A stretch of 64,000 bases of DNA. Source: a bacterium. GTDB taxonomy: Bacteria > Auribacterota > UBA3054 > JAPLST01. A program made the position numbers and the translations under genes. Positions 40,525-45,539 of the stretch are shown one piece after another (positions within the stretch are counted from its first letter, which is position 1; every line of letters starts with the position of its first letter). The notes beneath the pieces were generated by a model. The model was not told the origin of the DNA. It worked only from the letters and a program-made list of their open reading frames with translations, and ran no database searches. Location of the stretch: contig JAOACZ010000128.1 in the NCBI GenBank assembly GCA_026417575.1, positions 5,127 to 69,126 of the forward strand, read 5' to 3'.

Positions 40525-41751
40525 TTATTCCCTGGCGAAGGCAGCGACACGGGCGTCTGTGTCGTTCGTCAGGCGCGCGAGAAGAGCACGGGCTGCCTGA
40601 TTTGTTTCCATGCGCAGGCGGAATGCAAGGAAGCGCCGTGTATCTCTATCCTGCTCGCGCACAACTGGCGCGAGGAGGTGAGTGGTACGGGGAAGAGAAG
40701 CGAGGCAATCAATGGCTGCCGCGCGCGCCGTGAACGAGGTGCTGCGCAGAGAGGGCTGAACGTCGGCTAGTTTGGCCGAGAGTTGACCTGGTAAGCGCCA
40801 GAGGGTGAGGACGAGCATTGCTTCTGAGGAGATCGTGTTAATGGTAAACAGAATGGAAGAGGGTTGCTCCCAATTCCAACGGCAGGTATCGCGATCGCGG
40901 TTGCGGTTGGCGCGTAGGGCACGCCGCAACGTGGCGGCGCGCTGATCGGCGGACATTCGGAGGTTATAGACGGCGCGATACACAGGTTTATCCCAGAGGA
41001 ACGCGTAGGGATGCTGGCAGAGTAATTCAAGTGGTTGCAACGCCTGCGGCGCGCGAGAATGATCGAGGAGCACAGCGGCCGTGGTGAGGGCTTCCAGGGT
41101 CGTCCGCACGTCGAAGATCGTGTTGTTTCCAGCGGAGCGGTGTGGGAAGTCTAGGTCGGGAGCAGCTCCTGAGGGAGAAGGTGTGGCGCCCTGTAGATCT
41201 GGAAAAAGCTCTGGCCGAGCACGTACGGCAAACGCCCAAGCTGGTGTGAGGGGTTCGAGGCTACGCACATAGATAACGGGGGGAAGTGTGTGGAGTAAGC
41301 GCGTGATTTCTGCTGCGATCAACTCGTACACAGCAGGGTAGCGTGCGCGGTAGAGAGCCACGCAGGCAGCGGGCGTTAGGCGAAAGTGGTCGCGAATTAC
41401 GCTGTCAGCAGTAGGGTCATGAGTGCGCAGAGTAGCGAGCGCATGCAAGGCGTAGCCACGTGCAATATCAAGACTTTTTGGGTTGACCGTAGCGATTGTA
41501 CCAGCTTCGAACTCGTCACATCGTTGCAAGATGGCAGCGAGGGCGCGTACGCTGCGCTGATCGGGCAATTGAGCGAGGCGTATGGCATACTGCCGGAGTT
41601 CACTTGGAGAGAGAGCCAGGCGAGCGGCGTGCTCATACCGCTCGATTTCAGCCAGCTGGTCAGGGGAGAGAGCTGGCGCTGGGATGGCGCAGAGTACGGC
41701 GAGGAGTGCGCCAAGGAGTGATCGCCAGCGGGGGAATGGGCGGGAGGTCAT
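40525..41751 (-). CDS. Secreted alpha-helical repeat (HEAT/ARM-like) protein
   Basis: Start set at MTSRPFPRWRSLLGALLAVLCAIPAPALS (signal peptide), whose ATG forms an ATGA overlap with the upstream stop. Leu/Ala/Arg-rich helical repeats throughout. The track's 5' extension would overlap the upstream gene by 211 bp. Confidence 0.5.
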   Translation of the reverse strand: MTSRPFPRWRSLLGALLAVLCAIPAPALSPDQLAEIERYEHAARLALSPSELRQYAIRLAQLPDQRSVRALAAILQRCDEFEAGTIATVNPKSLDIARGYALHALATLRTHDPTADSVIRDHFRLTPAACVALYRARYPAVYELIAAEITRLLHTLPPVIYVRSLEPLTPAWAFAVRARPELFPDLQGATPSPSGAAPDLDFPHRSAGNNTIFDVRTTLEALTTAAVLLDHSRAPQALQPLELLCQHPYAFLWDKPVYRAVYNLRMSADQRAATLRRALRANRNRDRDTCRWNWEQPSSILFTINTISSEAMLVLTLWRLPGQLSAKLADVQPSLRSTSFTARAAAIDCLASLPRTTHLLAPVVREQDRDTRRFLAFRLRMETNQAARALLARLTNDTDARVAAFARE

Positions 41752-44700: not shown

Positions 44701-45539
44701 GCGAGGCGTGGAGCACAGAGGGCGTGATACCAGCGGGAGACCGTGGCCCAATCAGGAATGGTACTTACGAGCAAACGTTGTACGACGGTGTGGAGCGCGG
44801 GCATGTTTGGTTCTGGAAACATTCGGGGCACATTGCGTACTTTCCAGAGGTAGAAGTTAGTGCCGCCAGCCGAGTGCATGCTTGCGACGACGGTATTGGA
44901 CACAGGGGCCTTAATCACGAGGTGAACGAGGGGACGGCTGGTGGGCCCCCAAATTTCGTAGGTGCTATGGAGGATTGGTGAAGTGAGTTCGAAGAGGGTG
45001 TAATCACTGAAGGTGTCGGGCATGCGGGCTTTGGTGGTAATACGACGCACGACGTAGCGGCACAAGTCACCTGGTTCGAGCCCGGGGATGCTGACATGGA
45101 GGACTTTGCTCTGGGGGTCGAAAATATTTTTGTTCATCTGTGCATCATCTATGGTGATGCGACTTTGGGCGCTGAGATTGACAGGGATGATGCGGCCGTC
45201 TGGTTTGAGGAGTTCCACGAGCTCCACCATGGCGGTGCCGTAGCTGACATTAAAATGAATGGAGAGTGTGCGATTATCGCGCGCGCCTTTATCGGTGAGG
45301 ACTTTCACACAAGTGTCGGCGAGGCTTTCCCAGGTTCCGTTCGCGGCGTAGATGATGCGGGTGTGGTCGTCGACAAGGACGTCATCGGCGTCAGGGAAGG
45401 CAGCGCGGGTAATGTGAGCGCTCGTACGTTGCAAGGATGCGCGGTCGAGCAGGCCGATGGAGGGGGTGCTAAGGGCAAGGTGGGCTCCCAAGAGCACCGC
45501 GACGAGCACGCTCACGGCGTGCTTAGATGCAGTCTTCAT
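41748..45539 (-). CDS. Secreted 1263-aa transglutaminase-like superfamily protein of the DUF3857/DUF3858 type
   Basis: Signal peptide MKTASKHAVSVLVAVLLGAHLALS. Transglutaminase-like core with Cys (YGVCRDKGALLVALLRLAGFKAYPVLMY) and downstream His/Asp (FNHAVVAVEEADGSYTLMDPTDE). Long flanking N- and C-terminal regions. Confidence 0.6.
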   Translation of the reverse strand: MKTASKHAVSVLVAVLLGAHLALSTPSIGLLDRASLQRTSAHITRAAFPDADDVLVDDHTRIIYAANGTWESLADTCVKVLTDKGARDNRTLSIHFNVSYGTAMVELVELLKPDGRIIPVNLSAQSRITIDDAQMNKNIFDPQSKVLHVSIPGLEPGDLCRYVVRRITTKARMPDTFSDYTLFELTSPILHSTYEIWGPTSRPLVHLVIKAPVSNTVVASMHSAGGTNFYLWKVRNVPRMFPEPNMPALHTVVQRLLVSTIPDWATVSRWYHALCAPRLAATTPAMSNFVAELTAGLTNDRARLEALFYYVSQNIRYMGITTETEAPGYEPHDVCVTFENKYGVCRDKGALLVALLRLAGFKAYPVLMYIGPKKDPEVPQPFFNHAVVAVEEADGSYTLMDPTDETTKELLPAYLCDRSYLVAKPAGDCLRVSPIIPAEANMMRIKTTGELSRDGTLRAQTRLSFDGINDNAYRSALVRMKPIERRHMFEGLVKRVVPGARILACEITPRELRDMSKPLHVHLTYEAREFPIVGPQVVMLPPLWFGTSVGLINFVIGATGLDERKYPLETKYACGVSENIRLTMDGAAGPVHTLPHIEAIISSSLVWQAQMTVRDGVLHAHALQQLRLVEFSPQDYRALKDALRSIEFDRRKRAIFAREADPSRGDVVIHDADELYEVHDAHTQRVLTRVKKQILTYAGKKQHAELKVPFNPVWDTVTLHYARVTTPDGRLFTASTNEINYMDAPWVGRAPRYPGEKILVVNLPGVEIGSTIEYCVERTQRHRPSCDLYALFRTFDPIQRKRVRCRVPLELPFTRCFTPGGQVMETIASNHAVIEYTWEMTNQPPITPEPNQPPLWMFAPGVVASCGTWKRYAAEVHAALLRATEGQTAAIARAQALTAGLACRRAKIRAVRDFIATHIRAAGPPFPAMPLTSLSPADRTLHDGYGHSADRAILYLSMLRAIGVTAEFVLASSEPRLTRPNNPRLLCPQRHVFPTVLVRVLCGAETWYLNDTDQYAELGVTRHDGRPALLLPAGTLTRVRAPRRCRSHTELFYDLSVDEQGDARLTYRRVYYGTSFGAFRKQYTEMTPEQRRRHYLELVANISQAARAIGPLHTQHERYPGVEEFTVHVPRYLVRDGTSLYGTLPAGLISLPGLRADTRSTPYYWDSDNEITITTHVHLPTSFAHAELLPPTYTWYAPQQTGFVRCSAKWHCSATNLLPMTQDLRLRPAVFPPDTYPALLDANHRLTHASMRTILLSSSPSAP

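Follow-up and report, generated by a model that had tools for sequence, protein, structure and literature searches.

The tandem DUF3857 gene and its overlapping partner

The DNA analyzed here (“the window”) is a stretch of 64,000 nucleotides (nt) from a bacterium of the Auribacterota, positions 5,127 to 69,126 of contig JAOACZ010000128.1 in assembly GCA_026417575.1. On its minus strand lie two adjacent genes, a long one for a protein with DUF3857 and transglutaminase-like domains (“the large protein”) and, directly behind it, a shorter one for a helical-repeat protein (“the partner”); the coordinates of both genes and of the features discussed below are collected in Table 1. The large protein is entered at NCBI as “DUF3857 domain-containing protein” (the matching protein in our dataset, P0009, is 100% identical), and the partner as MCX7847586.1, a “hypothetical protein.” As the first-pass annotation of this DNA had reported, the large gene ends where the partner gene begins, the TGA of the one and the ATG of the other sharing bases in the sequence ATGA.

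Two starts are available to the partner. Its frame is open over 40525..41958 (minus strand); a start at 41958 would give a protein of 477 amino acids (aa) and a 211-nt overlap with the large gene, and an internal ATG at 41751 gives a protein of 408 aa. The shorter start, which had also been preferred at first pass, is the correct one judging from sequence comparison, because the homologues of the partner are all 336–418 aa long, their N-termini (basic, then hydrophobic) align with the proposed signal peptide MTSRPFPRWRSLLGALLAVLCAIPAPA, and the deposited protein has exactly the 408-aa form. Public annotation thus already uses the short start, and NCBI has no record of a 477-aa product here.

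The overlap of stop and start suggests that the two genes are co-transcribed and probably translationally coupled. There is no purine-rich, Shine-Dalgarno-like run directly upstream of the partner start at the window junction; among the relatives, some loci have GGAG or GGA shortly before the start codon. The first-pass annotation had gone further and taken the overlap to imply a 1:1 co-expressed pair. Co-transcription and possibly coupled translation stand, whereas the ratio was over-read, since a 4-nt overlap argues for co-transcription and says nothing on stoichiometry, and the same overlap is found at unrelated junctions: with starts taken from the longest open reading frames, ATGA occurs at 3 of the 26 same-strand junctions of the window, the other two being at 10169–10172 and 49189–49192. 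Upstream of the large gene, a sigma-70-like sequence is a candidate for the promoter of the operon; it is a weak candidate, given that the consensus scan of 6 kb returned one match where 1.7 were expected by chance.

Table 1. Positions of the two genes, their predicted domains and sites, and selected neighboring features in the window.
Feature	Position	Strand	Remarks
Large gene	41748..45539	minus	ATG start; 1263 aa; tandem DUF3857/transglutaminase-like protein, predicted to be exported
Signal peptide of large protein, MKTASKHAVSVLVAVLLGAHLALS	45468..45539	minus	From hydrophobicity scan; common to homologues; cleavage site approximate
N-module	43560..45464	minus	Residues 26–660; DUF3857 beta-sandwich, transglutaminase-like core and C-terminal alpha/beta domain
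Transglut_core domain, active-looking	44334..44675	minus	Residues 289–402; Pfam PF01841
Cys345 codon	44505–44507	minus	In YGVCRDKG
His385 codon	44385–44387	minus	In FNHAVVAV
Asp401 codon	44337–44339	minus	In MDPTDE
C-module	41751..43559	minus	Residues 661–1263; second three-domain copy with degenerate active site; pseudoenzyme module
Ser948 codon	42696–42698	minus	Cys-equivalent of the C-module; Thr995 is at the His-equivalent position
ATGA junction	41748..41751	minus	Read from 41751 to 41748; TGA of large gene overlaps ATG of partner by 4 nt
Partner gene	40525..41751	minus	408 aa; HEAT-repeat solenoid protein, predicted to be exported
Signal peptide of partner, MTSRPFPRWRSLLGALLAVLCAIPAPA	41671..41751	minus	From heuristic and homologue alignment; cleavage site approximate
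Low-confidence loop of partner	41116..41184	minus	Residues 190–212; pLDDT <50; probably disordered; part of the insertion peculiar to the linked clade
Most conserved part of partner	40531..40749	minus	SFTA[RK]AAAIDCL motif (Cys349) and HEAT_2-like repeats
Sigma-70-like promoter match	45565..45594	minus	TTTACC-18-TATAAT; about 25 nt upstream of large-gene ATG; candidate operon promoter
AsmA/DUF748-family gene	46133–49192	minus	1019 aa; ATGA overlap with DsbD-like gene
DsbD-like thiol:disulfide interchange gene	49189–50781	minus	Upstream of the pair

An apparently live and a dead module in the large protein

Pfam recognizes both DUF3857 (PF12969; E 1.4e-41) and Transglut_core (PF01841; E 1.6e-17, 64.2 bits against a cut-off of 23) in the large protein, each in two stretches, in agreement with its initial identification as a DUF3857/transglutaminase-like protein; the best Transglut_core stretch spans profile positions 3–108 of 108. 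Comparison by BLASTP of residues 1–656 with residues 657–1263 gave a collinear match over some 600 residues (E 1e-22), and this half-to-half match indicates that a complete DUF3857 plus transglutaminase-like module was duplicated in tandem to form the large protein. The AlphaFold2 model of the N-module (pLDDT 92, pTM 0.87) superimposes in Foldseek on the whole of the solved structure 3kd4 (E 4e-31, TM 0.74) and matches the transglutaminase-like structure 3isr at E 1.8e-4, and the fold of its beta-sandwich resembles the N-domains of M1 aminopeptidases and of OST1/ribophorin. The only solved relative that could be found by sequence is again 3kd4, which matches residues 679–975 of the C-module (E 9.6e-15 with the single sequence, E 1.4e-25 with a family profile).

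Members of the transglutaminase-like superfamily, among them 3ISR, 3KD4, LapG and PNGase, have a Cys-His-Asp/Glu triad (PMC4866520). The N-module carries Cys345, His385 and Asp401 at the canonical positions, as proposed at first pass, and in an alignment of 35 homologues, with identities down to 43%, all three residues are invariant together with the surrounding motifs EAPGYEPHD, GVCRDK, FNHA and LMDxTDE. In the AlphaFold2 model (numbering offset by 25), helix 320–333 begins at the Cys, strand 360–366 opens with the His, and the Asp comes directly after strand 372–375; this modeled placement is as expected for a papain/transglutaminase fold. A phmmer search of the PDB with the single sequence of the transglutaminase core returned nothing at E ≤1, and a domain-only profile returned sub-significant matches only, to 3kd4 (E 0.64) and to 3isr (E 0.77), the latter being the HMMER alignment in which the large protein and 3ISR share the Cys motif GVCRD letter for letter. 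Since these direct matches of the core to the PDB are not significant, the triad was judged from Pfam, from conservation, from the shared motif and from the model; on these grounds the N-module has an intact triad and is apparently active.

The C-module has a Ser where the N-module has its Cys, and a Thr where it has its His. Across the family the Cys position of the C-module is taken by S, N, T or G and the His position by T, D, S, A, H and others. An invariant triad in the N-module against free drift in the C-module points to one live and one dead module family-wide, a status checked in 35 sequences, and is the pattern expected under selection for catalysis; as read from the alignment, the second module is a pseudoenzyme whose nucleophile has been lost across the family. 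This tandem live/dead layout is the more general point to emerge from the locus, and it had been overlooked at first pass.

Searching with the large protein retrieved 1965 proteins at E ≤1e-10, and the best 120 of these are mostly 1240–1300 aa long, with 96–100% coverage and 43–71% identity. Source names among the matches listed include Lentisphaerae, Verrucomicrobia, Kiritimatiellia, Victivallales, Brocadiia, Phycisphaerales and Armatimonadetes; the range given for the family also takes in the Planctomycetes, and covers the Planctomycetes-Verrucomicrobia-Chlamydiae (PVC) group and other phyla. The large protein of the window is an ordinary orthologue in this widespread family, whose roughly 2000 full-length members (43–53% identity) are tandem proteins of about 1260 aa that are predicted to be exported and have no assigned function.

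The partner as a HEAT-repeat solenoid

The AlphaFold2 model of the partner is all-alpha and repeat-like (pLDDT 88), with antiparallel helices paired into an alpha-solenoid. No Pfam threshold is reached by the window protein, which has no Pfam family at E ≤0.1 and only a weak match in NCBIfam, to NblB (HEAT). Within its family, HEAT_2 matches 9 of 14 members with E-values reaching 4e-7, and the homologue at locus L009 scores 20.9 bits against a cut-off of 27.7. The helical-repeat protein of the first-pass annotation can thus be placed among the HEAT type, on the strength of the all-alpha model and of the HEAT_2 matches in its family. The partner is a rare HEAT-repeat solenoid, predicted to be exported, that may serve as a scaffold for binding proteins or peptides.

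Searches with a single sequence found 8 proteins of the partner family, a profile search of a set of 5.8 billion proteins found 12, and scoring every protein among 1.84 billion representatives gave 13 clusters at 50% identity. The hallmarks of the family are three invariant cysteines (C78, C290 and C349) and a near-invariant SFTA[RK]AAAIDCL motif. Alignment of the family also shows an insertion of about 35–48 aa (window residues ~186–222), which is present only in the clade of partners that are linked to the large gene; it is rich in P, D, E, G, S and R, and its sequence is not conserved within that clade.

Both products of the pair begin with a basic and then a hydrophobic stretch, as do nearly all of their homologues, and both appear from this feature to be exported by the Sec route, in keeping with the signal peptides assigned to them at first pass; the call was made with a Kyte-Doolittle heuristic and not with a dedicated signal-peptide predictor. 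A lipoprotein reading for the partner was considered and rejected: “AVLC” is a poor lipobox, and its Cys is not conserved in the homologues.

Conservation of the linkage among close relatives

All seven partner clusters with at least 54% identity, the window included, directly follow a close relative of the large gene. The linked large proteins are full-length (1260–1264 aa) in six of these loci, the copy at L017 being cut by the contig end, and they form seven clusters of at least 65% identity (among the matches listed), matching the seven close partner clusters. The overlap of the two genes is conserved at every one of the seven loci: the junction is ATGA in six (the window, L001/L002, L003/L004, L014/L015, L016 and L007), and TGATG, with an overlap of 1 nt, at L017. 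At L007 the ATGA start lies in frame at 4235, 27 nt upstream of the called start (4262).

The partner homologue at L007 (P0001) deserves a remark of its own, as its called start is probably too short. The ATG at 4235 is preceded by GGAG, and starting there adds a basic N-region, which makes for a better signal peptide.

Five of the seven close loci differ in their start-proximal sequence, and they are distributed over four flanking contexts: an AsmA gene upstream and a convergent gltD downstream (the window); Peptidase_C10 and methyltransferase genes; a hypothetical gene and a histidine kinase (HisKA) gene; and a DAHP synthase gene with a convergent Peptidase_S8 gene. The overlap has survived the rearrangement of both flanks, which argues for selection on co-expression.

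Comparison with known systems

The nearest structure, 3kd4 (BDI_1141, a “putative protease” of Parabacteroides distasonis), has in common with the large protein the three-domain module. It consists of a single module of 506 aa with a Thr at the Cys position, whereas the window protein has two modules, the first with the full Cys-His-Asp set. Likeness to the Transglut_core superfamily at large lies in the whole-profile Pfam match, the order of Cys, His and Asp, and their placement in the secondary structure; our searches found no close sequence relationship to a characterized enzyme, and the type of reaction (protease, transglutaminase, deamidase or amidase) is not readable from the sequence.

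Two known systems offer an analogy. LapG (PMC3032553, PMC13090378) is a periplasmic Cys enzyme of transglutaminase fold whose access to substrate is governed by a protein encoded nearby, LapD, as would be the case for the window pair; LapG belongs, however, to a different family (DUF920/BTLCP), and LapD is an inner-membrane receptor for cyclic di-GMP and not a HEAT solenoid. We could not identify any BTLCP, LapD-like, adhesin or type I secretion genes or domains in the pair or its neighbors. Vasohibin and SVBP are a Cys protease of transglutaminase fold and its obligate small helical partner (PMC6642083; PMC4866520). Both are found in the eukaryotic cytosol, and SVBP, with about 66 aa, is a short helix compared with the 400-aa HEAT solenoid; no homology was detected between them and the window pair.

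As to the partner, HEAT proteins of the PBS type (HEAT_2/HEAT_PBS; NblB, the CpcE/F bilin lyases and E. coli YibA) are cytoplasmic. The family of the window partner differs from them in its predicted signal peptide, its three invariant cysteines and its own SFTA[RK]AAAIDCL motif.

Surroundings of the pair and a related locus

Directly upstream of the pair lie the AsmA/DUF748-family and DsbD-like genes (Table 1), which together with the pair make four minus-strand genes for envelope proteins, as annotated or predicted. The 593-nt gap that separates the large gene from the AsmA-family gene argues against a single operon of four genes. This gap holds three copies of a 17-nt motif, CAAACGACATTTTTCGT, all on the minus strand (46050–46034, 45925–45909 and, with one mismatch, 45833–45817), which is otherwise missing from the 64 kb (chance would give 0.02 matches) and contains an imperfect palindrome, ACGA-N6-TCGT. 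The motif was not found in the 13 related loci that were searched. Its copies may represent operators, or a short repeat of local extent.

Downstream, gltB-like (1529 aa) and gltD-like (476 aa) genes on the plus strand (34450–40462), overlapping each other by 8 nt, converge on the partner gene, with stop codons 62 nt apart; no terminator-like hairpin was detected in the 62-nt gap. Farther along, a sulfatase-family gene (31677–33194) adjoins genes for an M20 peptidase and an LpxA-like acyltransferase, as would suit an organism of the PVC group. GC skew on the plus strand is strongly and continuously positive over 22001–56000 (0.13–0.41 per 2-kb bin), whatever the orientation of the genes, and near zero or negative at both ends of the window. 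An Rfam scan of the window returned two tRNAs only.

At the related locus L009, the partner homologue (5015–6214, 34% identity) follows, after about 150 nt, a gene (1321–4866) whose 1181-aa product has matches to alpha/beta-hydrolase, esterase and peptidase_S9-like families. This second case in which a member of the HEAT family follows a large hydrolase, here one with another fold, could be a coincidence, or a hint that such proteins are in general hydrolase accessories.

Interpretation and alternative explanations

We lean, with moderate confidence, toward reading the pair as a two-gene operon that couples, in one narrow lineage, a thiol enzyme and a HEAT partner, both predicted to be exported; the operon is lineage-specific, and its products are probably functionally linked. 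On this reading, the N-module would be a thiol-dependent hydrolase or transferase acting on an amide bond of a protein or peptide in the cell envelope, perhaps as a peptidase, an isopeptidase or a deamidase. The C-module, having lost its nucleophile, would be a non-catalytic binding or regulatory module, and together with the two beta-sandwich domains it may provide the binding elements. The partner gene would have been captured directly behind the large gene in the one lineage, and its HEAT-repeat product would work with the enzyme as a binding partner in the periplasm or envelope, most likely as a substrate adaptor or a regulator of activity, roles from which those of inhibitor or substrate are not separable at this point. 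A more specific form, in which the lineage recruited the HEAT protein as a dedicated subunit, for specificity or regulation, that would dock on the dead C-module and gate or direct the live N-module, is in our view rather unlikely.

Several observations weigh against a functional partnership. Three of the more distant partner homologues (30–38% identity) are unlinked: that at L005 adjoins a trpB-like gene upstream and that at L009 the gene for the 1181-aa alpha/beta hydrolase, neither having a DUF3857 gene there, and that at L013 lies between moaA-like and Na/Pi transporter (cotransporter) genes, on a single contig of 4.04 Mb in which it (at about 0.93 Mb) is 1.15 Mb from the large-gene orthologue (at about 2.09 Mb). 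Conversely, three orthologues of the large gene, at 52, 46 and 45% identity, have no partner gene downstream and sit in neighborhoods unlike each other and unlike that of the window; a partner-profile search of the genome contigs returned only two loci, neither of them linked. The large proteins of the linked clade have no clade-specific insertion, deletion or tail that might mark a docking site; what sets them apart amounts to six scattered substitutions, and the idea of a clade-specific docking feature was rejected. Because the linked clade is narrow, its conservation could in part be simply inherited, and overlapping genes are mechanically hard to separate. Finally, a search of the literature found no functional study of DUF3857, DUF3858 or 3kd4, and the chemistry proposed for the large protein is a guess from its fold because the DUF3857 family has no characterized member.

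These observations set the scale of the pairing. A wider conserved partnership was rejected because the distant partner loci have no DUF3857 gene and share no neighbor and the three distant large genes lack the partner, and obligate co-inheritance of the two genes was rejected because the partner, linked in seven of seven close loci, is absent at those three and is itself unlinked in its distant homologues. The first-pass annotation had held that the pairing would fall if the downstream gene proved to belong to an independently occurring family; this turned out to be partly the case, as the homologues at L005, L009 and L013 are unlinked while the seven close loci are all linked. The unlinked distant homologues indicate a pairing that is real but lineage-specific, rather than a general two-component system.

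The same facts feed the most serious alternative, that genome compaction happened to bring the two genes together in this one lineage, and that the HEAT protein has a function of its own, unrelated to the enzyme, as where it is unlinked. On that view the overlap persists only because the clade is young and overlapping genes are not easily pulled apart. We consider this possible, though less probable than the coupled operon. It would account for distant partner homologues that stand alone with no conserved neighbors, for two genes 1.15 Mb apart in a contig of complete size and for the large genes with no partner behind them, and ATGA overlaps are common in the window, for example between the DsbD and AsmA genes. 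Less easily explained by accident is that seven of seven close clusters keep the overlap while identity falls to 54% in the partner and 65% in the large protein, and that they do so with both flanks rearranged into four contexts. The junction itself has diverged (ATGA in six, TGATG in one, GGAG in some loci), yet the tight coupling was kept, and both products are predicted for the same extracytoplasmic compartment.

The linked-clade insertion in the partner bears on a further explanation, which we think improbable: the HEAT protein may be a substrate or pro-form of the enzyme, cleaved or cross-linked, for instance, at the disordered loop. The insertion of about 35–48 residues, with pLDDT <50, is present in the linked-clade partners and missing from all unlinked homologues, which leaves some room for a role as substrate or tether, and enzymes of transglutaminase fold act on exposed peptide segments (PMC4866520). 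A recognition site would, however, be expected to be conserved, which the loop sequence is not; the insertion may be a mere lineage trait of high-GC genomes, and there is no direct evidence for such processing. Still further from the evidence, and very improbable in our judgment, is that the large protein has a structural or adhesive role in the envelope, its triad being a relic, and that the HEAT protein acts as a chaperone when it is exported or assembled. The closest structure, 3kd4, lacks the catalytic Cys (“YGTPLE”), half of the large protein is a dead module, and the DUF3857 domain is similar to beta-sandwiches that bind substrate in OST1/ribophorin and in the N-domains of M1 aminopeptidases; against this, Cys345, His385, Asp401 and their motifs are invariant across phyla, whereas the equivalent positions of the C-module drift freely. 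A defense-system or mobile-element reading was rejected from context, the neighbors being housekeeping genes (gltBD, AsmA, DsbD and LpxA-like) and both products being predicted to be exported.

The coupled operon thus remains the explanation that we prefer, and the present evidence amounts to a refined annotation and a lineage-specific operon, not a new kind of system. The family to which the large protein belongs is big, well conserved and apparently exported, and every member examined has the layout of an enzyme-pseudoenzyme tandem. The live/dead tandem, together with the HEAT gene welded to it in one lineage, could guide the first biochemical study of the family; if the HEAT protein were indeed a subunit of the enzyme, it would provide the first experimental handle on some 2000 DUF3857 tandem proteins from the PVC group and other bacteria.

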